Shown here in pieces: positions 7,407 through 56,509 of a stretch of 64,000 nt of DNA. The notes under the pieces are model-generated. The model had not been told where the DNA came from. It worked only from the letters and a program-made list of their open reading frames with translations, and made no database searches. Both the position numbers and the translations under genes were made by a program. Source of the DNA: an uncultured archaeon (GTDB taxonomy: Archaea > Asgardarchaeota > Hermodarchaeia > Hermodarchaeales > Hermodarchaeaceae); contig CAYFXC010000002.1 in the NCBI GenBank assembly GCA_964347045.1, positions 116,285 through 180,284 of the forward strand, written 5' to 3'. Position 1 is the stretch's first letter. Every line of letters starts with the position of its first letter.

Positions 7407-7964
7407 CTAGTCGGTTTTGTCAGTAAAACTGATGCGAAAAACACAGTTTGCATTCCCTTGCAATCTCCCTTCGGTTTGAGTGACTCGAGCAATATATGGA
7501 ACCTTCAGATACTCAATCCAATGTTGAAGTAGTCCTTCAAGCATTCCAGAAACCAATTCACAATAGCGTAAATCCAATTCGGCTTCGAAGGTATCCTGCG
7601 AGCAGATGGGACAAGAATTTGTTCGAATAAATAGCGTGCGATCGTCGGTGAATTCCATAGAATCAGGCGGATTTCCTGTGGCTAGTTCCCAATTACGTGC
7701 GAGATATTCGTCAACCCGATTTAGGAAAAGATCTGGAGAATTAGGAAAGAAATCTTTTTTTGGTTCTCCATAGCGACTTACAAGCCCTAATAACAAAGGG
7801 GTAGTCATGGTTTTTCCGAGTGCGTGAAGCGCGCGTTCAATAGCTGTAGGATTACCAGCATGTTCGACGGATAGCACTTCCACTAATCGGAGATAGAAAA
7901 TCGATAATAGTGGTCCTGAGAAGAGAGGCGGTTTGTCTGGCGGCTCGGCTTCGTCGGAGGTCAT
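7407..7964 (-). CDS. V4R (TRAPP/Bet3-related fold) domain protein
   Basis: CPIC...YCELVSGMLEG...C pattern typical of V4R. Confidence 0.7.
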   Translation of the reverse strand: MTSDEAEPPDKPPLFSGPLLSIFYLRLVEVLSVEHAGNPTAIERALHALGKTMTTPLLLGLVSRYGEPKKDFFPNSPDLFLNRVDEYLARNWELATGNPPDSMEFTDDRTLFIRTNSCPICSQDTFEAELDLRYCELVSGMLEGLLQHWIEYLKVPYIARVTQTEGRLQGNANCVFRISFTDKTD

Positions 7965-8007
7965 ATCAATTTCATCCTATTATTTTCTTGACCTAGATTT
8001 TTAGAAT

Positions 8008-9252
8008 TTAATTGTCTTCTTCTGATTGCTTTTCTTCTGAAGCAGATTTAGTTGGTTTTCCTTTACCGGCTGCTTTCACACGTTCTCGCCGAGATTCCTT
8101 TGCAGGAGCACGTTCACGTAGTTGGCGTTCTGCTTCCGCTAAAGGACCTGGGGGAATTGTTGCAGGCAATGTCGGTGCTTGCCCAGTCAATTCAGCAATT
8201 TCAACTGATTTTTCAGCCCAGAGAACTTGTGCAGGATGTACGCCTGCGACTCGCCAGTAGAAGAAGCGGTCCCAGAGCTTTTCCTCAATTGAAAGGACTC
8301 CAGCTGATAGAGAGACGAGGTTCAGTCCAAGTCGATTAAATGCTTTTGCAACAACTTTGCGGACCTGATCACGGATTTCGGCTTCATCTCGTAATGCGCT
8401 CATAAATTCGTGTTCGGAGAACTGATCTCGCATCACGTTATCGATTAGGGTTTTTAAATATTCAACGAGTTCCTGTGAGTTCATTGGGATGCGTTGCTCA
8501 TGGAGTGTTGTGATAAGTTCACGGGGATCATCTACAACAAAGGCGAAGAGAAGCCCATAGGGCTCTTGGAGTCGGATTGACCGTTGATAGATGGTTTTCT
8601 CCTCTTTACCCAATCCAGTTTTAACTGGAATATCAAATTCTTCTCGACGCCAAGATTTTCCTGTCCATGTAAGTCGAGCAAGATCCGATGTTTGAGTAAC
8701 ACCCGTATTAGCGTAAACGTGAACTCGACCGGTGTAAATATAGACGATATTGGCTTTGAAACCTTGACCACGCCATCCCGTTTTAATCAACGGAGAAGGA
8801 AAGGTTTCAATTGAATATGGGGTTTCGCTAGGCTCCCAGACTTCATACACTTTGAATTCCCGATTGCCATTGTTAAATTCTTCACCATATGCACAACAGA
8901 TCCAATCGGGAGGCACGTATATCTTCGCGTCTTTTTCTAAAATTTCGATTTGTTCCATATCCCGCTCAAGGTCAGGAGGATGATAGATAAATTGAGGTAG
9001 TCTAGCATCAGATTCCTGTATTTCAATCCCAGTGGGGAGTGTTCGTGTCATGGTTTTCCCGGTGGAAAACCCACCGAAAGCCGCAATCCGTGTTAGCCGA
9101 CGAAATGCGCGGATTGCTTGGGCACCCCGATCCTTGTGGGGGGCTTGTATCATTTGAGTCCAATAGGTTTGTCCGCCGACATCACCAATAGGTATGCTAA
9201 ATTGAGGTCCAATTTGTGGATCTGGTGCCATTAAACAAATTGCTTTTGCCAC
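8008..9252 (-). CDS. SPFH/Band-7-like domain protein
   Basis: FVVDDPRELI...LKTLIDNVMRDQFS...IRDQVRKVVAKAFNRLGLNLVSLS resembles the SPFH core. Charged tail. SD GGAGG before GTG. Confidence 0.7.
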   Translation of the reverse strand: MAKAICLMAPDPQIGPQFSIPIGDVGGQTYWTQMIQAPHKDRGAQAIRAFRRLTRIAAFGGFSTGKTMTRTLPTGIEIQESDARLPQFIYHPPDLERDMEQIEILEKDAKIYVPPDWICCAYGEEFNNGNREFKVYEVWEPSETPYSIETFPSPLIKTGWRGQGFKANIVYIYTGRVHVYANTGVTQTSDLARLTWTGKSWRREEFDIPVKTGLGKEEKTIYQRSIRLQEPYGLLFAFVVDDPRELITTLHEQRIPMNSQELVEYLKTLIDNVMRDQFSEHEFMSALRDEAEIRDQVRKVVAKAFNRLGLNLVSLSAGVLSIEEKLWDRFFYWRVAGVHPAQVLWAEKSVEIAELTGQAPTLPATIPPGPLAEAERQLRERAPAKESRRERVKAAGKGKPTKSASEEKQSEEDN

Positions 9253-9314
9253 GATGAAAGCCTCCTTCTCATATTTGCGAATACTTCTAACTTCAAATAA
9301 CTATTGGTGAGTGG

Positions 9315-10172
9315 TTAAAATCCAGAGATTTCGTACCGGTCACCAAGTCGTTCTCTTTTTTTATCTTCTTTGCTACGCCATTCCTCTATGAATTGTTGTA
9401 TTTTTTGTTGTAGTGTACTATTTGGTGATTGGGCTATCCAGTCAAGAGAGATATGGACATGATCACCTCGAAGGACAATGGTTCGGGCTACGGCATCATA
9501 GTAGCCTCCTTGCCCTTTCTTGCTAAGGTATGCTATGAAATTAGTAAATTCTGTTTGAGCTTTTTTGCTATAACTTTGAAGCATGCTTTCAGGAACAACC
9601 AACATTTGGGTGTTAATCCGTTTCCCAACAAGCTGGTAGATGGCGGTTTCCGTCGTTGCTTCATGTTTAACCCCACTTTCAAGTAATGTGAAGAAGTCGA
9701 TTGGCCCAGAGAAACAGTTTTTAAAAAAGTCATGGCTAGTGCGTTGAAAATCTAATAGTTCCCCAGTGGCTTTGATGTAGACGACTTCGTTTACGCCATC
9801 AGAACGTTCAATAGCTAGATTCATGTGTTTTTTCCATTTAGTATAGCTTTCAGGATGTTCTTGAAGTTCTGGAAGAAAGACTAGGGGGATATTGAAGAAC
9901 ACCTTGCTATGTTTGAGTGCTTTTTCTAATTCTCCACTATATGGTTCTGGGGGTGGTAGACCTTCGATTTCAGCGACAAAAGAAGCCCGGAAGCTTGTGA
10001 GTATGAAATGTCCATCTTGTCCTTTCACCATTATTGGTTGGGTACCAGCGCGCACACCTTTCGCTATCTTTGCTTTGGCTACTAAGAGTAGCGTTTCTCC
10101 AGCTTTTGGAAGAATACTTTTTACAAGGGTTAATTTTTCAGATGGTTCTAGTTCCCAGGTCAACACGATCAA
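9315..10172 (-). CDS. Hypothetical protein: N-terminal PH/GRAM-like domain plus C-terminal SUI1/eIF1-like segment
   Basis: GETLLL...GHFILTSFRASF...IPL is PH/GRAM-like. LSKKGQGGYY...TIVLRGDH resembles the SUI1 pattern LKKK..GG....IELQGDH. Confidence 0.5.
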   Translation of the reverse strand: MIVLTWELEPSEKLTLVKSILPKAGETLLLVAKAKIAKGVRAGTQPIMVKGQDGHFILTSFRASFVAEIEGLPPPEPYSGELEKALKHSKVFFNIPLVFLPELQEHPESYTKWKKHMNLAIERSDGVNEVVYIKATGELLDFQRTSHDFFKNCFSGPIDFFTLLESGVKHEATTETAIYQLVGKRINTQMLVVPESMLQSYSKKAQTEFTNFIAYLSKKGQGGYYDAVARTIVLRGDHVHISLDWIAQSPNSTLQQKIQQFIEEWRSKEDKKRERLGDRYEISGF

Positions 10173-10213
10173 CCTTCATTTCTTTTATTGTAGAGGTCTT
10201 GATTATTTGATTA

Positions 10214-12361
10214 TTACCCAAGGAATTGGGTAGCGAATAGTGTGAACTTTTCCATGATTTCTTGTGTTATGCTTGGCTGGGTGGAAGTAATGGCTTCTTG
10301 GAAGTGTGACATATTAACAAGTGAGGCTTCGAGGTTTTTACGCAAAACTGCCAAGACTGCTTTACGGCAAACGTTTTGAATATCTGCGCCTGAGAACCCT
10401 TCGGTTACCAAAGCTAATTGATCTATTTCTACATCATCGGCTAAAGGCATATTCCGAGTGTGCACGGAGAAAATGGCTTGACGAGTTGCCAAATTGGGAG
10501 GGGGGGTAAAAATGAATATATCAAATCGTCCAGGTCGTAATAGAGCTGTATCAATCATGTCAGGGCGATTTGTCGCGGCTAAAACTACGACGCCTTCAAG
10601 TTCTTCCATTCCGTCCATTTCAACCAGCAATTGATTAACGATACGTTCACTAACTCGACTATCATATCCAGATCCACGGCGTGGAGCGATGTTATCAAGT
10701 TCATCAATAAATAGGATAGATGGTGCCGCCTGACGTGCGCGTCTAAAAATTTCAGCGATGATTTTTTCTGATTCACCCACCCATTTACTCATTACCTCTG
10801 CACCGCGGATACTGATGAAATTTGCCTGACTTTCAGTAGCTACTGCTTTTGCAAGAAGGGTTTTTCCAGTTCCAGGAGGACCAAAGAGAAGAACGCCTTT
10901 TGGAGGATTGATATTGAAACGGGAAAAAACATCGGGTCGACTAATTGGTAATTCGACAGCTTCACGTAACGCCTGTTTTGCCTCTTCCATGCCTCCAACA
11001 TCATCCCATCGAACCATAGGAACATCAATAGCAATTTCCCGAAGGGCCGATGGTTCGATAACTTGACGTGCAGATTTGAAATCGTTGGATGAAACAACAA
11101 TCTGGTTTATCACATCTGGAGGGACCTGCATTTGCTGTTCCTCGATTTTTGGTAGCATTCGCCGAAGCGCACCCAATGCAGCTTCCTTAACTAAAAAGGC
11201 TAAATCTGAACCCACAAACCCATAGGTGCCTTGAGCGATTTGCTCTAAATCCACGGATTCGTCAAGAGGCACTCCGCGTGTATGGACTCGAAGAATATCG
11301 TACCGCCCACGAGTATCAGGAACTGTAATGTGGATCTCACGGTCAAACCGGCCTGGTCGTCGAAGTGCGGGATCAACAGCTTCTAACCGATTAGTGGCCG
11401 CGAGTACAAAAACTTGATCTCGATCTTGAAGCCCATCCATAAGAGTCAAAAGTTGTGCAACAATACGACTTTCCATACCTCCCGATTCTCGTCTAGCAGC
11501 AATAGCATCAATTTCATCGATAAAAATAATTGCAGGCTTGTTCTTTTCGGCTTCCTGAAAGGCGTCTCTTAGAAATTTTTCGGATTCCCCGTAGTATTGA
11601 CTAACGATTTCTGGACCGTTTATAGCACGAAAGAAAGCTTCACTTTCTGTTGCAACAGTTTTTGCCAAAAGAGTTTTACCACAACCTGGAGGTCCATGGA
11701 GAAGAATACCACGGGGAGGTTGAATTTTTAATCGCGCAAATAACTCAGGGTGACGAATCGGAAGTTCGACAATCTCTCGTATTCGTGATATTGCGTCATC
11801 CAGTCCTCCTATATCATCGTAAGTTGTCGTAGCTATAATCTGCATTTCCTCAGGAGCCTCCTTTCGGAGCTGAATGTCGGTATTTAAATTTACGAGTACA
11901 TTACCAAGAGGGACCGTCTTCGCCACATAGAACTTGGCTTCACTTAGAGCAAACGCCGCTCTGCCAATTGCAATAATAGTATCCTTTTTGATAGGTTTGT
12001 CAAGAAGATTCGATTTTAACAAGGAAGTGGCTAACTCTTGCCGATATTCAATTTCTTCACCCTTGAGTGGGGTTAAAATTACACTCTGGGCAGGTTGTGC
12101 TTCGATGCCATGTAGCGTCACTACATCACCGATATGAACCCCTGCGTTTAGACGGGTTAGACCATCCATTTTAATGACATTCTGATCTTGAATACTAGGG
12201 TCACGAACCGCGAGGGCACATACGCTTTTCTTGCCTACAATCTCAACTAGCGAACCATCCGTGAGTTGTAACTGCGCTAACACGGCGGGGTCAATTCGTA
12301 CTGTGAATCGACCCACGTCTACGGCACTCGCTTCTACCACACGTACCGATACTACACTCAT
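10214..12361 (-). CDS. cdc48: CDC48/VCP family AAA+ ATPase
   Basis: N-domain plus two AAA modules: GPPGCGKT/IFIDEID and GPPGTGKT/LFIDELD, with RPGRFD fingers. Confidence 0.95.
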   Translation of the reverse strand: MSVVSVRVVEASAVDVGRFTVRIDPAVLAQLQLTDGSLVEIVGKKSVCALAVRDPSIQDQNVIKMDGLTRLNAGVHIGDVVTLHGIEAQPAQSVILTPLKGEEIEYRQELATSLLKSNLLDKPIKKDTIIAIGRAAFALSEAKFYVAKTVPLGNVLVNLNTDIQLRKEAPEEMQIIATTTYDDIGGLDDAISRIREIVELPIRHPELFARLKIQPPRGILLHGPPGCGKTLLAKTVATESEAFFRAINGPEIVSQYYGESEKFLRDAFQEAEKNKPAIIFIDEIDAIAARRESGGMESRIVAQLLTLMDGLQDRDQVFVLAATNRLEAVDPALRRPGRFDREIHITVPDTRGRYDILRVHTRGVPLDESVDLEQIAQGTYGFVGSDLAFLVKEAALGALRRMLPKIEEQQMQVPPDVINQIVVSSNDFKSARQVIEPSALREIAIDVPMVRWDDVGGMEEAKQALREAVELPISRPDVFSRFNINPPKGVLLFGPPGTGKTLLAKAVATESQANFISIRGAEVMSKWVGESEKIIAEIFRRARQAAPSILFIDELDNIAPRRGSGYDSRVSERIVNQLLVEMDGMEELEGVVVLAATNRPDMIDTALLRPGRFDIFIFTPPPNLATRQAIFSVHTRNMPLADDVEIDQLALVTEGFSGADIQNVCRKAVLAVLRKNLEASLVNMSHFQEAITSTQPSITQEIMEKFTLFATQFLG

Positions 12362-12468
12362 TTTAACCACACCTCACTTGTGTTTGGGATGCATGAGTTA
12401 TTGGTATTACCCACGCGAGTAGCATATTTAACTCCGGCGCCTGATAGAAGAATATGGGTCGTAAAATT

Positions 12469-13344
12469 ATGTCCACCCCAAAGCCATCTGCAATTCTTTT
12501 TCATACTGGTCACAATGAAGAACTTGCCCTCGACGAACCTGAACTCACTCATTTAGTGAAATTACTTGAAGCAAATGGAATGGCACCGCATTCTTCGAAT
12601 ATCCCGATATCAGGTGAGGAACTTTCAAAATTTCGAGTAGTAGTGCTAGGTAATCCCTTGGATATGAAATTCGATTCTCACGAAATAACCTCATTAGTTT
12701 CCTTCGTTGAAGCGGGCGGTGGCCTACTATTACTAAGTGGTGCTACAATATTTGGAAAAGGAGGGGATGCGGCGCGAAAAACGAACCTTAATGAAATCGC
12801 AAAACATTTCCAATTTAAATTTTCTACAAAGGCAATTGAACGTCCTAAAGATTCCCCAGATGAAATGATTACAGCAGTTCCGGCTAAAGACCATCCATCC
12901 AATGAAGGAATTCATAATCTGCAATTTACATCAGGAGTTAGTCTACTCGCAGAGGATGCAGGAATCCATCTTTTCCGAGTTTCTAATATTGCAGGTAATC
13001 CCACAATAGCTATAGCTACTGATGTAAAGAAGGGACGGGTTATCGCTTTTGGGGGAGGAACTTTCTTTTTCAATGACTATATTGGCATAGGTGACCATGA
13101 ACAACTCATTGTTCAACTATTCCGATGGCTTTCAGATGAACCTTTGAACCTCCCTTTTACGAAAATCTCAATCCCACCCCTAATCCATGATGAAGCATCC
13201 GCCAATGAAGCAATTGTCGAACTTCGACAACAGCTTGATAGGATAGAGGAAGAACTTGCCAGCCTTAAAGAAATTATTAGCTCAAGTGTCAAAGAAATGG
13301 AAAAACTAATGCGAAAAATCCAAAATGACGCTAAGGAGACCTAG
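12469..13344 (+). CDS. GIFT (GldG/IFT52-like) domain protein with C-terminal coiled coil
   Basis: LFHTGHNE...VVVLGNP..KF...EI..L..FVEAGGGLLL...NLNEIAKHF...GRVIAFG...LFRWL, then heptad-rich tail. Confidence 0.7.
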   Translation: MSTPKPSAILFHTGHNEELALDEPELTHLVKLLEANGMAPHSSNIPISGEELSKFRVVVLGNPLDMKFDSHEITSLVSFVEAGGGLLLLSGATIFGKGGDAARKTNLNEIAKHFQFKFSTKAIERPKDSPDEMITAVPAKDHPSNEGIHNLQFTSGVSLLAEDAGIHLFRVSNIAGNPTIAIATDVKKGRVIAFGGGTFFFNDYIGIGDHEQLIVQLFRWLSDEPLNLPFTKISIPPLIHDEASANEAIVELRQQLDRIEEELASLKEIISSSVKEMEKLMRKIQNDAKET

Positions 13345-14003
13345 TTTGTATAGGTCACCAATTGTTCGATAGTGATTCGACGTTCTAATTGTGCGGCTCC
13401 ATAGTTTTGGAGAGAAAAGTAATCTAGCATCACCTGAAAAACTGGTTGTTGGAGTATTTGAGCGAGTTCTTTTATAGACTTTTTTCCATCAATAGCCTCT
13501 AGGAGAGAATGTAATTTCACTGGAACCTGGCTTTTAGGAACTGTATGTACGCGGATTGGGGTGTAGTCTTCAGAAACAGCAAATGGACGAAAGAGCAATT
13601 CGATTTGTGGAGCAATTTCTCGAAAGGGACTTAAATCACCAAGCCAGTTTTCTAACATTTCGCCATGTTCTCGTTCCATGATGTTAATGAGGGCACGCAT
13701 GCGTTCACGAATGGCCACTAAGTCATCTGTAGAGAATACGGCGACGTAGATATTCTGCCCGTATTCTAAGAGAATTTTGACGTCCTCACGGTCAATGATG
13801 CGTAATCGACCATCCTCTCGTTCAAGGGCTCGTAATTTTTGACCAACCTCTGAGATTCGACCAACAAGATCAGAAAGAAACATGCTCACAGCAGAAAGGA
13901 AGCCAGTAACAAGATCAGGTTCCATGTTCTCGATTTGGAAATCTTTTTGGAGGAGGGTTCGACCATCACGATATACGACGTAAAGACTATACAATTGAGC
14001 CAT
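13341..14003 (-). CDS. Longin-like domain plus C-terminal wHTH (NPRL2-like architecture)
   Basis: LYVV..DGRTL...PDLVTGFLSAV...LENWLGDLSPF (Asgard longin-like). IDGKKSIKELA...LQNYGAAQL. Confidence 0.7.
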   Translation of the reverse strand: MAQLYSLYVVYRDGRTLLQKDFQIENMEPDLVTGFLSAVSMFLSDLVGRISEVGQKLRALEREDGRLRIIDREDVKILLEYGQNIYVAVFSTDDLVAIRERMRALINIMEREHGEMLENWLGDLSPFREIAPQIELLFRPFAVSEDYTPIRVHTVPKSQVPVKLHSLLEAIDGKKSIKELAQILQQPVFQVMLDYFSLQNYGAAQLERRITIEQLVTYTN

Positions 14004-14065: not shown

Positions 14066-16654
14066 TCATCTAACTCGTTGTGCAATTCGATGGATTTCGC
14101 TAATGATTTCTGTAGGAGAGGTTAATTCATCGCCGAGATACGTTCGACCCCGAGTGATGTACGCCATATAGAATGCCAAAAAAGGTATGAGTTTGTCATC
14201 TTTAATTCCGACTTCGATGTAATTGGGAATGTTCAATTCATGAGCTCGCTTTCGAGTCCATTCTAAGATGACGTCATGATGTTGTTTTTGTTTAATTGGA
14301 AAGAATTCGTGGTGTAGGTTAATTGTCACTAAGGGTATGCGATCATTGCTGAGAAGGTGACATTGATGCAAAACATCGGCGATGGCTTCTGGTAATCCGA
14401 GATCAGGCGTATTTGATTTACTCAACTGGATATTAGGGAGAAAATCGCTAAATACCACGATGATCGGAAGGGTGCCGGGATTTCGTCGACGTTCGCGTTT
14501 GATAGTTTCGTGGGCACGTTTCAATCCAGCCGCGAGGGGTGTATAGCCAGAGAGTCGGAGGGTCATGAGCTTTGAAACCAAACGGGTCCAATTTGTAGTT
14601 GGAGCTTGTACTTCCATGGCGCCCCAGTCTTTAAGTGCGATGAGCCCTACGCGATCTCTTGTGCCTTCCAGACAGCTTTTAAACGCAATTAATGAGAGTT
14701 GAAGTTTGTCGAAACTTTTGAGCATTGAAACACTCAAATCGACTACAAAGATAACCGTGAGGGGTGTCCGACTTTGAAAGCGTTTCTCTCGAACGTCGGG
14801 TGGCTGAATACGTACGCGAGGAATTTGTGGTCTTTCTGGATTGGTGTGGAGTGCAGCGGCTTTGATGGTGGCGGGAATATGAATGTTTCGTGGAGATCCT
14901 TGTGGAAGCCCTGATCCGAGAAGCACTCCACCCTCGGTTTCTCGAGAATGGATTGATCCTGCTCGTCGTCCGACTTGGCGGATTGACCATTTAGGAGCTC
15001 TTTGACGTCCAAAATATCGGGGTTCGAGAAAGTCCTTAAAATCAAATAGTGGTTTTCCTTCATCCATTCGAATCAATGAAGAAGACGATACTGGTTTGCT
15101 AGAAACAGAGGGAGGTGAGGAGCTTTGAGATTTTTGAGGTGGTGCAGTACTTGTAATGGGTGGTGCTGTGGATTCCCCCTGATGTTTGGCACGGCGATAT
15201 TTTCCCTTATAGTCGGGTGGTCGATCTCCTTGTGACAGCGCTGGCATGACTGAGCCGGGTCGCCTTTGAAGGCGAAATAATCGTTCGAGGAAAACGACTA
15301 GACCTGCTGAAATTAATCCGCCAACAACGAAATTGATAGGAGGAGGGAGCGGTAAAAGAAGGCCGATTGCTCCAGCGACTACCATGAAGAAACATACAAA
15401 ACCTGTGTAGGAACAGCGTCCACCCGTGCTTCTCCTAGGCGGTGTTCCAAAAAACTGTTCACCATCTTGATTGCTATCCAACGGATGATACTGTTTGAAT
15501 TTGTTAGTGAGTTTCTGATGCTCATCTTTTGTGTACGGATCTTTGTCCTTGGACTGAGGTGTCTGTGTTTTAGCTTTTTTTCTTGCCTCTTTCATAACGT
15601 CATGAATTTCGTTACCCGTAGGAGGTTCTAAAATTCCACGTTGTCGAGTTCGATGGCTAAGAGCAAGCGGGGCGACAGTTTCAATATCATCCGCAGTGAC
15701 TGTTGTTCGTCCATCAAAAGCAGCAAATGCCATTGCCGTTTTTGCTATCACAATATCAGGGCGAGCGCCATCTACTTGGAGTTCAGTAGTCAAATGGGCG
15801 ATGACTTGCATAATGTCTTCAGATATCATTACGGTTTTCATTCGTTCACGGGCAGCTGTAATTTCATCTCGGAGTTTGTCTTCTTTAGGAGCCCATTTCT
15901 TTTGGAGAGCTCTAGGATCTCGTTCAAAGTCTATGTTTATCTGGATAATTTCGACTCGCTCTTCTTGTGAGAAAGGACGCTGGATTGCGACATGAAGCGG
16001 AAACCGATCAAGTAGTTGGGGGCGGAGTTCCCCTTCTTCAGGATTCATTGATCCGACGAAAATAAATCGAGCGGGATGGCTCACAGATATTCCTTCTCTT
16101 TCCACGACATTAATTCCTGTTGCGGCTGCATCAAGAAGCGAATCAACAATATGATCAGGAAGAAGATTGACTTCATCAACGTAAAGGATGTTTTGATTGG
16201 CATCGGCAAGAATCCCAGGCTTTAAGGCAGCTTCTCCTTCACGAATGGCTCGTTCAACATCTAAACTGCCAACGACACGATCTTCGGTAGCACTCAGGGG
16301 GAGGTTGACTACGCGCATCTTTTGCATTTTGGTGTTTAATTTCTTAGTCTTTTCAAATTTTGCTGTACAAGCCGTGCAGAGTTCAGTGGCATTATCGGGA
16401 TCACAACGAAACTTACAGCCTTTTACTACAGGGATTTCTGGTAAGAGCGCTGCGAGCGAACGAACAACCGTTGTTTTCCCTGTACCTTTCGGACCCGTGA
16501 TTAAGAGTCCTCCAATGCTGGGATTAATGGCATTGAGAAGTAGGGCAAGTTTCAACTCGTCATGATTAACTAAAGCTGTGAAAGGAAGAACATTGCGAGT
16601 GCCGATGTTCACTTCCGGTGCCAATCCACGAACCTCTACAATTCCTGCGCCCAT
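14066..16654 (-). CDS. Mg-chelatase ChlI/ChlD-like AAA+ ATPase fused to vWA domain, with two TM helices in the linker
   Basis: [57 protein letters not shown]...TPLA...SD. Hydrophobic hairpin near aa 415-460. Confidence 0.88.
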
Positions 16655-28279: not shown

Positions 28280-29677
28280 ATGGCAATTGCTTCTGAGGAG
28301 TTCCTAGATAGGGTGGAAAACCGTATTCTGAACCGTTTGGTTCCCCAGGAAAGGAGTCCTGTTAGGAGCCTGTTACAGAATGTGATAATTCTAATTAAAC
28401 GTGTTAGGGGCCAACAACTAAGTGAGGATGAAAGAGTATATCCACTACATCCTCTTTTAGCTGTTATCGGTCAAAAAGCAGGAGAGATGACGCTACAAAC
28501 CCTTCTTTATCGATTACATCTAGTTGACAGATATGAATTTAATAAATCAAAGGATATTATTAGTGTTCTAACTCGAAAAATTCCCATTGGAATTAACGAA
28601 TCATTATCAGCTCGCAAAGCCCAAATTCTTTGGCATTTATTCCAAAATCCTTCACTCCCCAAATATCAATTAGCCAAGGAACTAGGCACAACACCACGCA
28701 CCATATCAAAAGAATTAACTGAATTGCATCAGGATTTGGCGTTTAACATTTGGACAACGCTTGATGCTCATAAATTCCATTTTGTTGTGAAAACCATTAT
28801 ATTCAGAACACGATCAATAGAACACACAAAACGGCTGGAGAATTTCATTTCTAAAGGACAAGGATTTCTCCGCACATTTCATCTTGATCAAGATATACGA
28901 AGCGGTGAAATTGTTTATCGATATCCTGATCAACCAGAAGCCCATAAGATGTTTAAAGAGCGATATCGTTGGCTTCAAGATGAGTTCTTTATCGAATCTC
29001 ATTTAGTTCAAATTCTTGGGTTATTCCAATCGATTTCGCTTGAGACATATAATCCAGCAACGAATTCCTTTTCAATTGAACCGGAAATAGTCTCAGAAGC
29101 ACCGTTCGGCTACTTTAAAGGGCATCTTGATACACTCCCCCAACCTCAGGGAATAGACTACACACAACCATTTAGGTTCGACAAAGCAGATTTTCTTTTA
29201 GCTGATACCCTATATTCATCTGGACCTTTTAGGAAATCCGATTACAAACGAAATCTTTTGAACCGACATGGTATCAACTACTCAATGAAAACAGTCTGGA
29301 AGAAAGAACAACGACTTCGAAGAGAGAATGCCGCAATTCCAATGATTGATCTACAAATTCCAGGTTTTGACGAAGATTTACTCTTTGTTGTGTTTTGTAC
29401 ACCAGACGCAACTAAGTCGATTCATGCGATCTCAGCATTTCTTCCATTTGTTATGACTTTTAACACAGATTCAGGCTGTTTTTTGAGAATCCAACGTCCA
29501 ATTCATACATCTACTCTTACGGGACAGCTGATTCGTAAAATCAATCATCAAAAAGGAGTTTTTGATGTAAAATTGCTTCGTTTTCAATGGAGAATCCAGA
29601 TGCCGATATTACCGAAAATTGTTGATTGCTGGAATATCGAGGAACAGAAATGGTTGATACAGGAAGACGCCATTTGA
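28280..29677 (+). CDS. Large double wHTH/Lrp-like DNA-binding protein, paralog 1
   Basis: HTH QLAKELGTTPRTISKELTEL. Second HTH-like segment. Internal duplication. Homologous to 29699 and 34817 ORFs. Confidence 0.75.
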   Translation: MAIASEEFLDRVENRILNRLVPQERSPVRSLLQNVIILIKRVRGQQLSEDERVYPLHPLLAVIGQKAGEMTLQTLLYRLHLVDRYEFNKSKDIISVLTRKIPIGINESLSARKAQILWHLFQNPSLPKYQLAKELGTTPRTISKELTELHQDLAFNIWTTLDAHKFHFVVKTIIFRTRSIEHTKRLENFISKGQGFLRTFHLDQDIRSGEIVYRYPDQPEAHKMFKERYRWLQDEFFIESHLVQILGLFQSISLETYNPATNSFSIEPEIVSEAPFGYFKGHLDTLPQPQGIDYTQPFRFDKADFLLADTLYSSGPFRKSDYKRNLLNRHGINYSMKTVWKKEQRLRRENAAIPMIDLQIPGFDEDLLFVVFCTPDATKSIHAISAFLPFVMTFNTDSGCFLRIQRPIHTSTLTGQLIRKINHQKGVFDVKLLRFQWRIQMPILPKIVDCWNIEEQKWLIQEDAI

Positions 29678-29698
29678 GCTATGGAGGAAGGTCAAATA

Positions 29699-31120
29699 AT
29701 GACACGCGGGAAAAGACAGCTCAAACAAAAAGAGGATATCACTCAAGAGTTTATTGAACGTATCATTACCCGTTCTAGACCAGAAGACGATCACGAGGAA
29801 CTGCGGATTTTTCTTACTAATGTGCGTCTATTCATTAAGCGTGTTGAAGGTTTCGATTTAACTGAGGATGAAAAAGAATATCCGCCTCATTCACAATTCA
29901 CACATCATACCTTGAGGAAGGGACGAAGTACAGCGGACGGTTTGAAGTATCGATTGAGAACAATTGACCGATACAAGATAACCAACGTCCAACAAATAAT
30001 CAACATAATAGCATCAACCGCGGTTTCAAGTCCAAAAGGAAAATTAACTCTCCGACAGATACAGATAATCCAAGAACTACACAAAAACCCCCTATTACCT
30101 CAATACGAACTCGTACAGCGACTCTCTACAACTTCCTCAATCATTCGGAACGAACTAAAATTTCTTCGGCGACGTTTTTCGATGGGCATAATTAACAATT
30201 TAGATTACAATAAATTCAAGTTAGGACTATTTGAGATTGATTTTCGCACCATGTCCTTAGATGCCTCTGAAAAACTTGAAATGCATTATCGACGAACTCC
30301 ACCTCCATTTCTACGACGGATTAGTTTTGACCATAACTACCGCGATGGTTTCATTCACTATTTAATTCCAGATCAACCTTCGAGCCATCAAAAGCTTGCT
30401 GAACGGATTGCTTGGTTAAACTCAAACTTCTTACAGGAATCGGCTTGTTTTCGAACACATGGTTTTCGAGTTGACTTGTCATTTGAAAATTACAATATTC
30501 CCACCGGAACTTGGATGCTTGATGCAAATACATTTTCAGTCGACATGTTAGAATTCCTATCTCGTCAAAAACGTGATCAACCCCAACCGCGGGAACGTAC
30601 ATACACGAATCCGATTCACTTTGATAGGGTTGACTATATTCTTGCGTCTACCCCCTATCTTTTTGGAGAAAAGCAGCGTATTGAAGTTCGACAAAAGGTG
30701 TTAAAACGCCACGGGTACACAATATCCAAGAAAACGATTTGGAACCGTGAAAAGAAATTACAGCAGGCAGATGTTTTTTATCCGTCAGTTTGGTATGATT
30801 CCCCTGAGTTGGAGGAGCTTGTGAAATTCACTATAAACTGTACAAATAATGCACTCGAAAAGATTTACCGTCTTATTTCCATCCTACCATACACTTATTC
30901 GGTGCCAACGGACGTCGGTGTGACCTTCACGTTCCAACGACCGAGTCGATGTTCTTCGATAACTGGATTATTAACGAAAGCGTTTGACAAAATTGATGGA
31001 GTCTCAAATATTTGGGTGATCCGATATGAGCCTACATTCAGTCCACAGTTGTTTACCCAAGTTGTAGATCGATGGGATGAAAGTCATCAACGTTGGTTAC
31101 TACAAAAAGGCGACATTTAA
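29699..31120 (+). CDS. Large double wHTH/Lrp-like DNA-binding protein, paralog 2
   Basis: HTH ELVQRLSTTSSIIRNELKFL; LDYNKFKL; SKKTIWNREKKL. Confidence 0.75.
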   Translation: MTRGKRQLKQKEDITQEFIERIITRSRPEDDHEELRIFLTNVRLFIKRVEGFDLTEDEKEYPPHSQFTHHTLRKGRSTADGLKYRLRTIDRYKITNVQQIINIIASTAVSSPKGKLTLRQIQIIQELHKNPLLPQYELVQRLSTTSSIIRNELKFLRRRFSMGIINNLDYNKFKLGLFEIDFRTMSLDASEKLEMHYRRTPPPFLRRISFDHNYRDGFIHYLIPDQPSSHQKLAERIAWLNSNFLQESACFRTHGFRVDLSFENYNIPTGTWMLDANTFSVDMLEFLSRQKRDQPQPRERTYTNPIHFDRVDYILASTPYLFGEKQRIEVRQKVLKRHGYTISKKTIWNREKKLQQADVFYPSVWYDSPELEELVKFTINCTNNALEKIYRLISILPYTYSVPTDVGVTFTFQRPSRCSSITGLLTKAFDKIDGVSNIWVIRYEPTFSPQLFTQVVDRWDESHQRWLLQKGDI

Positions 31121-34816: not shown

Positions 34817-36253
34817 GTGGCGCGCGTGGCATCTGCTATCGAAGCATCCGATTTGCTCTCCACCTTGAAACATAACATGCATGAATCCATGCGCCCAAGT
34901 GAAGAACTTTTCCAAATTGAGTGTCTGATAGATAACCTAAGAGTGTTTGCAAAAAGGTCAAGGGGGATTCCTCTTAGTGAAGACGATCACAGGATTCAAC
35001 CTCACCCTGAATTTGATGGAATGACTGTAGTACCTCGCGAAAGAACATACAACTCCCTACTCCGTCGTCTGAAAGTATTACTCCGGTTCAACATAACTTC
35101 TTACGAAAAAGTTTCTCGGGATTTGTTACAGGGACTGGTTTCGGATGAAACTGACCGGCTGACCGGTAGAGAAATTCGACTAATGTCTTTACTTTATCAA
35201 CGCCCAAATACTCCTCAAGCACAAATGGCAAAGGAATTAAAAATAAGCTTGCCCACGATGCGAAAAGACATTCGAACACTTGAAGAAAAAATCGGCCTTC
35301 GTTTTGCTAATCTAGTTGACTGGGGACGTTTCAAGCTACGCCATTATGGTATTTTCTTTATTTCCATGGGAGTTGATGCATCTCGACGCCTTGAAAAAAT
35401 CTTCAATGAAGAGATGTCAACATATCTTACATCGGCTGTGTTTGACACAACATTACTGCGAGGTTTTGTGGGATTTAGACTTCCAGATCAGGGTCGACCA
35501 CTTCAGCTTTTTTATGAGCAGGTTGAAATTTTGAAAGAGAATTTCTTTGAAGTTTGCCAGGTGCATGAGATAAAGCAATATTACCAAGCAATTTGCTTTG
35601 ATCATTTTGACTACGAAACCGGCTCATGGCTCATTGAAGGAGATGTTTCTACCTTAGGTCTTCTGAATTTTGTTCGAGAGAATTGGACTGTTCTTCCGAA
35701 GCCACGAGGATTATCGAACACTTTAGCACGATCATTCGATCAGCTTGACTATTATTTGGCTTCATTTCTGGTAGGCGATGGTCGGGCACAAATGAAAAAA
35801 ATTCAAAATAGGTTGCGTTCCGTGAATATTGATGCTCCTCGAACAACTGTCTCGACCCGGAAGAGCCGACTTTTAAAGGAGAGAACTCTTGAACCCTATT
35901 TTGTATTTGGTACACCACAACTACCGTTTTTCATTACATTTGCAGTCGAATGTGAGCCATATATTGCTGAACAGCTGGCTGTGGGAGTAGCCCAAATGCC
36001 GATGTCATTCGCTACGATATCTAATATTGGTTGCGTTGTAAATGTGAGTGTTCCATCTCGGAATCTTGGTCAAATTCTTAATCTTCTCTCCCTCACTCGC
36101 GAAGAAGAGGCCGTGAATGAGATCTGGCAAATGCAACAATACCGCAATATTGGCTCAGTCGACCCAGCCCAACTTGCTTCTAAGTGGAATGGATCATATT
36201 GGAATTGGTCTGAAGAAGAATTTGCCATTCCGTCGTTGGGTTTGGAGCATTAG
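34817..36253 (+). CDS. Large double wHTH/Lrp-like DNA-binding protein, paralog 3
   Basis: HTH QAQMAKELKISLPTMRKDIRTLEE; VDWGRFKL; PRTTVSTRKSRLLKE. Confidence 0.8.
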   Translation: MARVASAIEASDLLSTLKHNMHESMRPSEELFQIECLIDNLRVFAKRSRGIPLSEDDHRIQPHPEFDGMTVVPRERTYNSLLRRLKVLLRFNITSYEKVSRDLLQGLVSDETDRLTGREIRLMSLLYQRPNTPQAQMAKELKISLPTMRKDIRTLEEKIGLRFANLVDWGRFKLRHYGIFFISMGVDASRRLEKIFNEEMSTYLTSAVFDTTLLRGFVGFRLPDQGRPLQLFYEQVEILKENFFEVCQVHEIKQYYQAICFDHFDYETGSWLIEGDVSTLGLLNFVRENWTVLPKPRGLSNTLARSFDQLDYYLASFLVGDGRAQMKKIQNRLRSVNIDAPRTTVSTRKSRLLKERTLEPYFVFGTPQLPFFITFAVECEPYIAEQLAVGVAQMPMSFATISNIGCVVNVSVPSRNLGQILNLLSLTREEEAVNEIWQMQQYRNIGSVDPAQLASKWNGSYWNWSEEEFAIPSLGLEH

Positions 36254-53171: not shown

Positions 53172-53275
53172 AAATAACGCGAAATTTTTCGTCAAATTTA
53201 TAACAAAAAGAGCTATGCTTTCAATCGTTCCTGCAATAGTCTAAGAACATGTGAGCGAGAACGAGAGTGCAAGTA

Positions 53276-56200
53276 ATGTCAAAAGTTCGAGAATTTACAC
53301 CAGCCGATGCCGCAGGATTAGCTAGGTGCATCAATGAAAGTGAAGGAGGCTGGCCTGGCGGAATTACCGGAGGAGTTGATCATACAGCAGAACATATACT
53401 CGAAGACTTTGAACGTGAAGAGAAACTTACCTGGTTAGTCGCAATAAGCGAAGATGCACAGGTTGCAGGGATTTCTACATTATTACCATATTATGAAGAT
53501 CCTGAGGCCGCATATCTTGGATTTTTAAACGTTAGTGATGCCCACCGAAAAAAAGGATTAGGGAAAGCACTTTTAGTCGAATCAGTGAATCGGGTTAAGA
53601 CTGAGGGGTATAAACGCCTTTTCTTACATACTTGGGCTGGAAACCTAAATGCTGTTCCTGTCTATAAGCGAACAGGATTCTTTTGGCGTCCAGATACTCA
53701 AGTATTAATGGAGAATTACATTCCGACCATTCTCAAATTACCAATTGCACAAGCTTTTTTCAAGCAACATGATTGGTATGAGTCCTACGTTCGGAAGATT
53801 GAGCTCAAACCCGATGAAATGAAACATCGCGGTCTCAATGTATATGAGTACCGGTGGAAGAAACAAGGAGATTTTCTTCGGATTATGATTGATCGAGAAA
53901 GTCGTGGACCGACACTAATTGAAAATAACAACCTATTAGTAGAATGCTGGGTTGCTGATGCAGAACCAGCGTTGGGTTTACCCATACCAGTTCGGTGGAG
54001 AATTCAGAATAAGAGCCCCACTAGCTCCTTGGACTGTAACCTAATTGTAACACTTCCTAAAGGATTTAAGTTAGTCGAGGCACCCACAACAAAAATTACA
54101 GTTCCACCTAAAAAATCGATTACACTTAATGGAGTGATTGAAGGGCAAGTCACTGTTATTCCACCAGAAGAAGAGAAACGTGCGTTGACTATTATTTCCA
54201 AACTATTAATTGACAAAATACCTATCCAGCTCGAAACAGGTATCCGTGCAAAGCATCAGATTCAAGTGTCTACAGTTCCTCCATCCGTATGGTGTCGACC
54301 TGGAAATCGGTTTACAATAGCCATTGCTATTAAGAGCAATCTTAAGAAGCTAGCAAAGGGCCGTCTTTTTGTACGAACTCCTCGAGGCCTTAAAACAAAG
54401 CAGAAAAAATTTGACATTCAATTAGAACCGGAGAGTTATTCCGGAGTAGAGCTAGACGTCGTTGCGAATTCGTCTTTAGGCACGAAAGCTTTGCCCCTCA
54501 AGATTCATGCAAAACTTGAGGTTAAAGGACATTTGATCAAAACTAGAACTGAAAAGATATTCGTGCACTGCTTAGGTCATGGTGGAATTTTAGTCACACC
54601 CCATCAGGATAACCGTCGTTTACAAGTTCACACCGAAACCTTACAATTCACCATAAATCTGTCAAAGGGAGCCCATATCGATAATCTTACAAACCGATTG
54701 ACCAACAGAGTTCAGATAAGATCTCATTGCCGAAGTAGTTTAGGTCCACCATTTTGGCCTTCAGAACAGATGAACACCCACTTTAAGCATAGGATCGAAC
54801 ATTTAGAAGACGGAACTACGCGAATTATTACCTGGATGATCTCTAATCGATATGCAGGTTTAGTATTTTCAAAAACCTTTGTATTGACTGGCAATTCATC
54901 CATTCTTGGTATCGAATATGGATTTGAAAATACTAACCCAAAGAAGACCTATCAAATTAGGTTAATGCGGGGTAGTATTTCTGGGGTTTGGGATCATCTT
55001 CATGTCCTTCCACTAAAGAAAGGTTTGCTCCGTGAAGAATTCATTGAGGATGAGTTCTTCGCTTCAGACAGGGAACTTCCGAAAAAACGAGAAGAGTGGG
55101 CTGAAACTTGGTATTGCCAAGAATTACCACATAAAGGTGAAGTAATTGGCGTGTTATGCCCCCCGTCAATCTTTTACGAGGCTCGTGGGTTCACATTCAT
55201 CGATTTTCAGGTACAGGTTCCGCCAATACCCCCGAAAAAGGAAGTTGTTTTGCCATATCTTTATCTAGTGACGGGATTAGGAACTTGGCGACATATACGA
55301 AGGCTTTGGCATTATTACTACTCAGATGAACCTGAAAAAGCACTCCAGACCGAGTTAAAACCCTACAAGGTTGTGGATATTCGAACAGAAGAGTATCCGA
55401 TGCTTCAAGAAGTTAAACCAGAAATTATGGTCCCCCTCAAAGTTCACCACCTTGTTCACCGTCCAATCCGTGGAACCCTTCGCTTCGCGGCACCAAAGGG
55501 TTGGAAAATCATCCCCCGAACCACTAATTTCAGAGATCTCAAAGGAGATAAGCCCCTATCCGTTCCGGTCAAACTACAAGCAACTGCAAAGACAAAGTTA
55601 GAACCAGATCTTCTTACCATCTCAGCCCAAGTTGAAACTAGACTTCAAACCAGAGATTTTCAAATTCCAGTCATTTTACACCGGAAATCAGGTAAAATAA
55701 CGATTTCACACACTACTATCGAAAATCATGAGATCTGCATTATCGATAACGGAAAATTCCTGCTTAAAATCGCTCCTGGCTTTGCAGGAAGTGTGTTTGC
55801 CTGGATTAACAAGGAAACGGATACTAATTTACTTGAGTCGAATTTTCCGCAGGCAGGTCCCAGAGTGTGGTTTAATCCGTGGTATGGGGGTATTCGTTTT
55901 GAGCCATTTTCAGGAAAACAGCCCGGTTGGTTTCCAACAAAACTTGACCGTGAGAGTTGGATACTAGAAGAAACTCAACGGAGCGGTTGGAAGGGAGTGA
56001 CCTTAAGCGTCAAACCTGATATGGAAGAACGTACACTCAGAGGTTTCCGGTTGGCGCTTCAGGTTTTAACACAGCCAAAAAGCAATATTGTTGCGCTCAT
56101 CGGTCAGGTTATTAATCAATCTCAGGCACCAAGAATAATCAACCATCGATTTCGAATAGCACTTCCTTCTCGGGAGACTTCACCTAACCTAGAGACTATC

Positions 56201-56509
56201 ATTCCCCGAGCAACAACCACCTATCGTCGTCATCGTGTCCAAACCCATGCATGGCCCACATCAACACAACCGTATATTGGTATTGAACATGGACCAGATG
56301 ATGCAACAATTGTGTTCAGTAGTAAATTAAGACCAAAGACGGAATTATATTTAGGAGACTTGAACCCCGAATTCATTGCTATCCAAACTCAAGAACCTAT
56401 CGAGCTTGGTCCAAACGAAAGGGTCGAACGTACAGGGTTTTTAGTAACTTCAAATTTACCATGGAAGCAAGCAAAAGCCTATGGCGTACTCTCAGAGCTC
56501 ATTATCTAA
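53276..56509 (+). CDS. Large protein: N-terminal GNAT acetyltransferase plus multiple beta-sandwich domains
   Basis: LNVSDAHRKKGLGKAL, TWAGN.NAVPVYKRTGFFW, then ~850 aa of beta-rich repeats. Confidence 0.85.
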   Translation: MSKVREFTPADAAGLARCINESEGGWPGGITGGVDHTAEHILEDFEREEKLTWLVAISEDAQVAGISTLLPYYEDPEAAYLGFLNVSDAHRKKGLGKALLVESVNRVKTEGYKRLFLHTWAGNLNAVPVYKRTGFFWRPDTQVLMENYIPTILKLPIAQAFFKQHDWYESYVRKIELKPDEMKHRGLNVYEYRWKKQGDFLRIMIDRESRGPTLIENNNLLVECWVADAEPALGLPIPVRWRIQNKSPTSSLDCNLIVTLPKGFKLVEAPTTKITVPPKKSITLNGVIEGQVTVIPPEEEKRALTIISKLLIDKIPIQLETGIRAKHQIQVSTVPPSVWCRPGNRFTIAIAIKSNLKKLAKGRLFVRTPRGLKTKQKKFDIQLEPESYSGVELDVVANSSLGTKALPLKIHAKLEVKGHLIKTRTEKIFVHCLGHGGILVTPHQDNRRLQVHTETLQFTINLSKGAHIDNLTNRLTNRVQIRSHCRSSLGPPFWPSEQMNTHFKHRIEHLEDGTTRIITWMISNRYAGLVFSKTFVLTGNSSILGIEYGFENTNPKKTYQIRLMRGSISGVWDHLHVLPLKKGLLREEFIEDEFFASDRELPKKREEWAETWYCQELPHKGEVIGVLCPPSIFYEARGFTFIDFQVQVPPIPPKKEVVLPYLYLVTGLGTWRHIRRLWHYYYSDEPEKALQTELKPYKVVDIRTEEYPMLQEVKPEIMVPLKVHHLVHRPIRGTLRFAAPKGWKIIPRTTNFRDLKGDKPLSVPVKLQATAKTKLEPDLLTISAQVETRLQTRDFQIPVILHRKSGKITISHTTIENHEICIIDNGKFLLKIAPGFAGSVFAWINKETDTNLLESNFPQAGPRVWFNPWYGGIRFEPFSGKQPGWFPTKLDRESWILEETQRSGWKGVTLSVKPDMEERTLRGFRLALQVLTQPKSNIVALIGQVINQSQAPRIINHRFRIALPSRETSPNLETIIPRATTTYRRHRVQTHAWPTSTQPYIGIEHGPDDATIVFSSKLRPKTELYLGDLNPEFIAIQTQEPIELGPNERVERTGFLVTSNLPWKQAKAYGVLSELII

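Follow-up and report, generated by a model that had tools for sequence, protein, structure and literature searches.

A conserved four-gene operon of a diverged Cdc48, an orphan protein, a soluble SPFH protein and a TRAPPC3-like protein in a genus-level clade of Hermodarchaeia

We analyzed a stretch of 64,000 nucleotides from an uncultured archaeon of the Hermodarchaeaceae (Asgardarchaeota; contig CAYFXC010000002.1, positions 116,285 to 180,284), hereafter termed the window, focusing on a four-gene unit that encodes a Cdc48-type AAA ATPase, an orphan protein, an SPFH protein and a V4R/TRAPPC3-like protein. This operon is conserved within one genus-level clade among the genomes searched, and its combination of genes, a variant of the SPFH-plus-AAA theme, is apparently undescribed. 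Judged from its sequence, the Cdc48 is a specialised third, long-branch paralog, for which operon-encoded adaptors are plausible. The unit comprises:

10214..12361, minus strand: gene 1, Cdc48/VAT-type AAA ATPase with N-D1-D2 organization (715 aa), the third paralog in the genome
9315..10163, minus strand: gene 2, orphan protein and candidate adaptor (282 aa from a conserved TTG start)
8008..9252, minus strand: gene 3, predicted soluble SPFH protein, derived from the YdjI/Band_7_1 type (414 aa)
7407..7964, minus strand: gene 4, putative stand-alone TRAPPC3/V4R-fold protein (185 aa)

The four-gene unit is conserved within a single genus

All four genes lie on the minus strand in the order Cdc48, gene 2, SPFH and gene 4, with opposite-strand genes on either side. 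A preliminary description of the window had noted four co-oriented genes with gaps of about 40–60 bp, which we confirmed: the gaps measure 50, 62 and 43 bp, the first shrinking to 41 bp if gene 2 is started at 10172, as placed by the open reading frame (ORF) finder, instead of at the conserved TTG at 10163. All 14 Hermodarchaeia genomes of the same genus preserve the gene order, with all four genes on one contig in 13 of them (three with end genes clipped by contig ends) and the unit divided between two contigs in one. The order was likewise consistent for the genes present in ten of ten metagenome loci, three of which look near-identical to one another; four of the ten carry the complete set, and the most divergent locus exhibits 55–76% identity. 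Purifying selection was detected on all four genes, with pN of 0.056–0.13 and pS of 0.65–0.76 (8/8 comparisons, two relatives).

The synteny comparison across Asgard genomes that had been proposed earlier gave a divided answer, as the order holds throughout the genus but the unit was not found in the 236 other Asgard genomes searched. The same narrow range is common to the orthologous groups of all four genes. Full-length SPFH orthologs were obtained from the genome itself and the 14 same-genus genomes only (251 searched), and the partial matches in 12 genomes of family f6 were, where examined, ordinary YdjI-like proteins. Gene 2 was present in 15 of 61 genomes, every one within the genus, and was not detected in the four sister-genus genomes (80–83% complete) even at E values up to 1. 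For gene 4, strong matches were confined to the genus, with weak ones in seven other genomes (121 searched), and no match to genes 2–4 turned up around 20 Cdc48 loci from outside the genus. With its occurrence limited to a single genus-level clade among these genomes, the unit looks like a lineage innovation and not like a eukaryote precursor.

Two irregular loci were observed in this survey. In G007 (L043:6081-6761, ~10650) the V4R frame stops early and the Cdc48 gene holds Ns, possibly reflecting an assembly gap. On the metagenome contig L076:1-1546, a clpP-clpX-like bacterial sequence joins the operon Cdc48 in frame at the shared Walker A, a chimera that is probably a misassembly.

Gene 1 is a long-branched and tail-less Cdc48 paralog

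The Cdc48 call for gene 1 stood, as its score exceeds the TIGR01243 cut-off (898 versus 803 bits), a Pfam scan returned CDC48_N and two AAA stretches, and the start at 12361 is conserved in 12 of 12 orthologs. The genome holds three Cdc48s, PAN and an ESCRT-locus ATPase; same-genus genomes mostly have three Cdc48 copies, and each sister-genus genome gave two matches. We calculated a FastTree phylogeny of 73 Asgard Cdc48s (a chosen subset, partial sequences excluded) and an IQ-TREE phylogeny of 34, in which the operon Cdc48s form one clade on a branch of 0.65 (support 1.0/100), nested in a group with the genome's C3 paralog (support 0.999/100). The long branch, the status as a third copy and the conserved gene order bear out the earlier proposal of a dedicated Cdc48 paralog, for which a phylogeny had been suggested as a check. 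The closest outside relative is a short-tailed Cdc48 of family f14, albeit weakly supported (0.49/64). The N-domain of the operon Cdc48 shares 30–39% identity with the sister clade, compared with 42–48% for that of the C3 paralog.

The operon protein has in common with archaeal Cdc48/VAT (TIGR01243) the N-D1-D2 organization together with intact Walker A/B motifs, arginine-finger motifs and D2 pore loop, and differs in its long branch, its missing tail, its altered D1 pore loops and its residence in an operon of its own. In D1 pore-loop 1 the operon Cdc48 carries glutamine (K255Q) where 61 of 61 other Cdc48s have lysine, and D1 pore-loop 2 shows a 2-residue deletion plus substitutions, whereas the D2 loops are canonical. 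The protein ends in FATQFLG; counted from the PSIT column, the tail spans 20–21 residues in 12 of 12 operon Cdc48s versus 31–33 in the sister clade, and the HbYX motif is found in none of the 12. PAN and archaeal Cdc48 dock to the 20S proteasome through HbYX (PMC4192671).

Three genomes of family f14 encode a tail-less Cdc48 of their own, unaccompanied by partners corresponding to genes 2–4. In three of three loci (L109:5655-7880, L201:52-2178, L203:1501-3726) it adjoins a convergent HTH-V4R gene, which gave no significant match to gene 4. In one of them, G045 (L109), a ChlI-vWA gene lies nearby whose best match in the genome is the ChlI-vWA gene of the window, hinting at an older neighbourhood. 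Since the nearest outside relative is short-tailed, the tail-less paralog may predate the operon.

Gene 3 is a derived SPFH protein of the soluble YdjI type

In line with the preliminary SPFH call, gene 3 passes the Band_7 cut-off (E 1.3e-6). Its own Band_7_1 score of 15 bits lies below the 24-bit cut-off, and a profile–profile alignment (HHalign) with Asgard YdjI-like Band_7_1/zinc-ribbon proteins reached a probability of 97.8% (E 7.6e-13, 170 columns), the common region including a QTSDLA motif and the helix following the SPFH domain. All of the best 11 Foldseek rows for the low-confidence AlphaFold model (mean pLDDT 42.6) were SPFH proteins, the best with E 2e-3; a sequence search against the PDB returned nothing significant. 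Sequence comparison identifies gene 3 as a true SPFH protein that has diverged from the soluble YdjI/Band_7_1 type and is not an erlin. It carries an N-extension of ~95 aa, an insertion of ~30 aa inside the SPFH domain and a helical region at residues 323–358 that is 96% conserved, and a charged tail replaces the zinc ribbons, with no tail cysteines in 16 of 16 SPFH sequences. A canonical YdjI-like SPFH with zinc ribbon (DZR) is also retained in the genome.

None of the four proteins exhibits a transmembrane (TM) segment by the 19-residue Kyte–Doolittle mean (best 1.24–1.47), while the genome's two stomatin-like SPFHs, used as control, reach 3.0 and 3.5. The value of 1.24 for the SPFH protein agrees with the earlier remark that it has no obvious TM helix, and it lacks an erlin-type N-terminal TM helix. 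Its N-extension contains the following element:

9067..9129, minus strand: predicted basic amphipathic helix, SPFH residues 42–62, with R48, R51, R52 and R55 on one face

This stretch is 90% conserved with a hydrophobic moment of 0.64, residues 38–66 carry a net charge of +6, and the AlphaFold model places a helix at residues 42–58. It is a candidate membrane anchor or Cdc48-N-binding helix. We compared it with the p97-binding consensus motifs Rx5AAx2R (VIM), EhRRRRLxhh (VBM), h(x)1-2F/W(x)0-1GxGx2L (SHP) and FPR (PMC5389986, PMC10641518). The helix partly resembles the VIM and VBM p97-binding helices and fails both consensus motifs: all 16 SPFHs contain a partial VIM, Rx5AA without the pivotal last arginine, against 0.13 per protein expected by chance, and all 16 contain RRLxRh, a pattern chosen after the sequence was seen. 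An SHP-like WRGQG was rejected because the final leucine is missing and it aligns within the SPFH domain. A complex prediction for the Cdc48 N-domain, SPFH 1–362 and gene 2 gave 0.00, 0.44 and 0.41, with controls at 0.00, 0.00 and 0.35, and speaks neither for nor against binding.

Gene 2 encodes an orphan protein with two putative domains

The 33 hits to gene 2 share 59–87% identity, and a 15-sequence profile searched against 1.84 billion representatives revealed no credible relative beyond this cluster; a 911-aa repetitive protein (E 7e-4) was rejected as spurious. Pfam gave no hit, a sequence search against the PDB nothing significant and Foldseek nothing at E <= 0.001, the AlphaFold model having a mean pLDDT of 43.2, with the N-terminal half below 50. 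Two regions can be delineated:

9714..10163, minus strand: N-terminal half of gene 2, weakly called as PH/GRAM-like
9339..9569, minus strand: C-terminal alpha-beta3-alpha domain of gene 2, possibly KA1/TBP-like (helix-grip)

Gene 2 had initially been described as PH/SUI1-like, of which the PH part is weakly supported and the SUI1 part is not supported. ESM features of the N-terminal half (0.86–0.89), whose ten best named hits all belong to a single family or clan, provided a lead only. Local HHalign against a 23-sequence Asgard bPH_3 profile scored 26.3 (probability 19%, 27 columns), above the maximum of 15.9 in 27 of 27 controls, and this low-probability match aligns the G-x-h-h-L-T-x-x-R-h-x-F motif of PH/GRAM/bPH proteins. 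Scans of the genome with bPH_3 and GRAM did not hit gene 2. The C-terminal domain is predicted with a pLDDT of 71–94 at residues 201–270, and its best VIA-align match, the KA1 domain of Kcc4 (3OST; Z 5.6, rmsd 3.4, 76 aligned), ties with the METTL16 VCR and others; at Z below 8, the KA1/TBP likeness may reflect a common arrangement only. SUI1 lacked support on several counts: HHalign against the genome's own SUI1 yielded 2% probability over 14 columns, no SUI1 hit was found in the 33 members or among 50 VIA-align rows, and the GDH motif is not fixed (GHH, GGH, GTH). The protein ends in the C-terminal motif LGDRYEITGF, and the 86% conservation of these last ten residues is as expected for a putative binding motif.

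Gene 4 matches Thorarchaeia TRAPPC3

The V4R call for gene 4 was not supported by Pfam, where both TRAPP (E 0.05) and V4R (E 0.14) stay below cut-off, but was upheld by a 12-sequence ortholog profile, which matches the Thorarchaeia TRAPPC3 structures 7YH3 (E 1e-5) and 7YH2 (E 8e-5) over the full length. C118, C121, C135 and C174 are invariant and aligned to the cysteines of Thor TRAPPC3, and gene 4 is accordingly predicted to adopt a TRAPP/V4R fold with four zinc cysteines. Thor TRAPPC3 is a homodimer with internal cavities in which four cysteines bind zinc (PMC10933270). Gene 4 differs from it by ~25 additional residues and by an operon shared with Cdc48 and SPFH, with no small GTPase in the unit. 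A second stand-alone TRAPPC3/V4R-like gene was observed at G000:C3:12852-13361 (minus strand); the gene downstream of it is presumably an HMG-CoA reductase.

Neighbouring genes and promoter region

Downstream, the unit is met by a convergent aldehyde ferredoxin oxidoreductase (AFOR) gene. The upstream side comprises:

12454..13344, plus strand: gene for a GIFT/DUF4350 domain with C-terminal coiled coil, divergent neighbour upstream of the Cdc48 gene
12362..12453, no strand: intergenic region common to the Cdc48 gene and the divergent GIFT gene

The GIFT gene adjoins the unit wherever the contig reaches far enough, with lower conservation (48–66%). The shared intergenic region is a probable bidirectional promoter, and its TATA-like block GGAGTTAAATAT at 12435–12424 is conserved in six of six loci examined; a sigma-70 promoter scan returned 6 sites versus 9.7 in shuffles.

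Further genes of the window were noted. A 220-aa gene at 13341–14003 (minus strand) is conserved ~1 kb upstream of Cdc48; by its motifs it resembles a longin plus winged helix, a likeness that found no confirmation in Pfam or PDB searches. Since TRAPP contains paired longin and TRAPPC3 folds, a link of this gene to gene 4 is possible. A ChlI/MoxR-type AAA fused to vWA is encoded at 14066–16654 (minus strand). Three genes of 465–479 aa at 28280–31120 and 34817–36253 (plus strand), each with a weak central HTH match, are probably a paralogous family. At 53267–56509 (plus strand), a 1080-aa protein has an N-terminal GNAT domain as its sole Pfam match at E 1e-4.

Discussion

The results above show what the parts are and how their sequences have changed, whereas all interactions, the membrane link and the proteasome uncoupling considered in the following are inferred. 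The chances appear about even that the operon is a genus-specific, co-transcribed module in which a duplicated Cdc48 has specialised as a segregase for a single, membrane-associated target complex, probably a non-proteasomal segregase that works with an SPFH scaffold in the cytosol and an adaptor of its own. The SPFH protein would oligomerise to a ring or cage in the cytosol, held against the inner face of the membrane by its basic amphipathic helix and/or gene 2, and gene 2, with its PH-like and KA1-like parts, would be the adaptor through which the N-domain of Cdc48 is linked to this scaffold or the membrane. The TRAPPC3-like protein, as a putative zinc-binding dimer, may take up a hydrophobic ligand or lipid and regulate assembly. 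The Cdc48 pore would then thread a client or an SPFH subunit and release it, so that the complex would be recycled by Cdc48 in the style of NSF/Vps4 and not fed to the 20S proteasome. As the genome retains a canonical YdjI-like SPFH as well as PAN and two further Cdc48s, the Cdc48 and SPFH of the operon are extra, diverged copies.

Several observations weigh against such a module. Within the genus, the flanking AFOR, HIT, GIFT and ChlI-vWA genes are equally syntenic, and the GIFT ortholog likewise was not found in the sister genus; synteny and range therefore do not single out the four genes. Synteny shows a stable unit and is not proof of a physical complex, and the same-genus genomes, being kin, do not count as independent observations. 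Strict VIM, VBM, SHP or FPR motifs were absent from the four alignments scanned. Of 61 other Asgard Cdc48s, no more than 10 have a strict HbYX (proline counted as hydrophobic), and four other complete Asgard Cdc48s are short-tailed too, so that the missing tail, taken by itself, is no proof that the operon Cdc48 is uncoupled from the proteasome. Support for a PH fold is weak, with a probability of 19% and a failed global alignment of gene 2 with bPH_3, and since the unit holds no transmembrane protein, the membrane link can only be inferred.

A more specific form of the module, which we regard as tentative and clearly less probable than the general one, takes gene 2 and the arginine-rich SPFH helix as dedicated, operon-encoded Cdc48 cofactors, implying that a p97-style adaptor logic evolved independently in one lineage of Hermodarchaeia. 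In this form the tail-less Cdc48 would be recruited to a membrane-borne SPFH cage with a TRAPPC3-like subunit and would disassemble the cage in an NSF/Vps4-like manner.

Somewhat more doubtful still is that the four genes are co-regulated and their products physically independent, forming a genus-specific stress operon of extra paralogs, namely an unfoldase, a scaffold and a ligand sensor. The synteny of the entire neighbourhood within the genus, the missing canonical p97-binding motif and the tail-less Cdc48 without partners in the three f14 genomes would all fit this explanation. It accounts less well for four genes that are all diverged, extra or orphan with one shared range and that are better conserved than the GIFT neighbour (83–91% for SPFH versus 48–66% for GIFT), or for the accelerated branch and diverged N-domain of the Cdc48.

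Improbable in our view is a ligand-sensing or signalling module devoid of a membrane role, in which V4R/TRAPPC3 would act as sensor of a small hydrophobic molecule and Cdc48 would remodel a regulatory assembly that is soluble. Against it speak the typical membrane association of SPFH, PH-like and KA1-like folds and the conserved basic amphipathic SPFH helix, which fits membrane binding; the absence of TM helices from all parts is in its favour. So is the nearest outside Cdc48, which adjoins HTH-V4R in three of three f14 loci, though this gene is convergent and unmatched to gene 4. Furthermore, V4R-fold proteins bind hydrophobic ligands (PMC10933270).

The preliminary description had seen in the unit a possible proto-ERAD (endoplasmic reticulum (ER)-associated degradation) system. 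An ancestral erlin–p97 pair extracting membrane proteins for proteasomal degradation is a reading which the Cdc48 and SPFH genes in one unit of an Asgard archaeon and the intact D2 pore would favour, but which we consider very unlikely given a YdjI/DZR-type soluble SPFH without the N-terminal TM helix of the TM-anchored, luminal erlins (PMC12624060), the loss of the Cdc48 tail and HbYX, the lack of ligase, ubiquitin-like and membrane-protein genes in the four-gene unit (no genome-wide ligase search was made) and the occurrence in one genus-level clade only among the genomes searched. No Derlin/retrotranslocon gene lies in the four-gene unit, and a DER1 search of the genome gave no signal anywhere, with controls equally silent.

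Among known systems, the closest likeness of the operon SPFH is to the YdjI/SamI type (Band_7_1, PF13421; B. subtilis pspA-ydjGHI), equally soluble without a TM helix, from which it differs by the missing zinc ribbons and the new N-extension and insertion. The soluble YdjI of B. subtilis carries a zinc finger at its C terminus and depends on partners for recruitment to the membrane (PMC8581546, PMC13713150), and in archaeal Meth_adaptin ESCRT loci a YdjI-like SPFH lies near a Vps4 AAA ATPase, not linked to Cdc48 (PMC10936438). Unlike the YdjI and Meth_adaptin loci, the unit contains neither PspA/ESCRT-III nor a membrane anchor gene, and its ATPase is a two-ring Cdc48; PspA had no match in the 89%-complete genome. 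Separately, an ESCRT locus was observed at G000:C8:28405-31195, with two Snf7 genes beside a Zn-ribbon/bPH/Vps23-core protein, and the ATPase at G000:C8:38549-42954 is presumably Vps4-like, with neighbours that we take to be ESCRT-I/II-like. Pairings of SPFH and AAA proteins are established for HflK/C–FtsH and prohibitin–AAA protease (PMC12624060), and the likeness to these and to Erlin1/2–p97 ERAD is an analogy of SPFH scaffold plus AAA motor. Erlins, for instance, carry a TM helix at the N terminus and assemble within the ER lumen, and in all three systems the SPFHs are TM-anchored and located in the ER lumen, the periplasm or the intermembrane space (PMC12624060), whereas the operon parts are predicted soluble and cytosolic, with a motor lacking a protease domain. 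No description of the operon was found in the literature searched, which left aside most subscription papers and several supplements, including Asgard survey tables; the main text of PMC12962969 mentions neither Cdc48 nor ERAD.

The unit offers a compact set of four proteins, all predicted soluble, on which dedicated adaptors and proteasome uncoupling of an archaeal Cdc48 can be tested, and it lends the orphan gene 2 family a partner context. It also gives a TRAPPC3-like protein a fixed gene context: in MK-D1, genes for small GTPases generally do not share operons with those for roadblock, longin or TRAPPC3, so that partners are difficult to predict (PMC10933270). Being confined to one genus-level clade among the genomes searched, the operon does not bear on the origin of ERAD and instead shows Asgard archaea recombining eukaryote-like parts.

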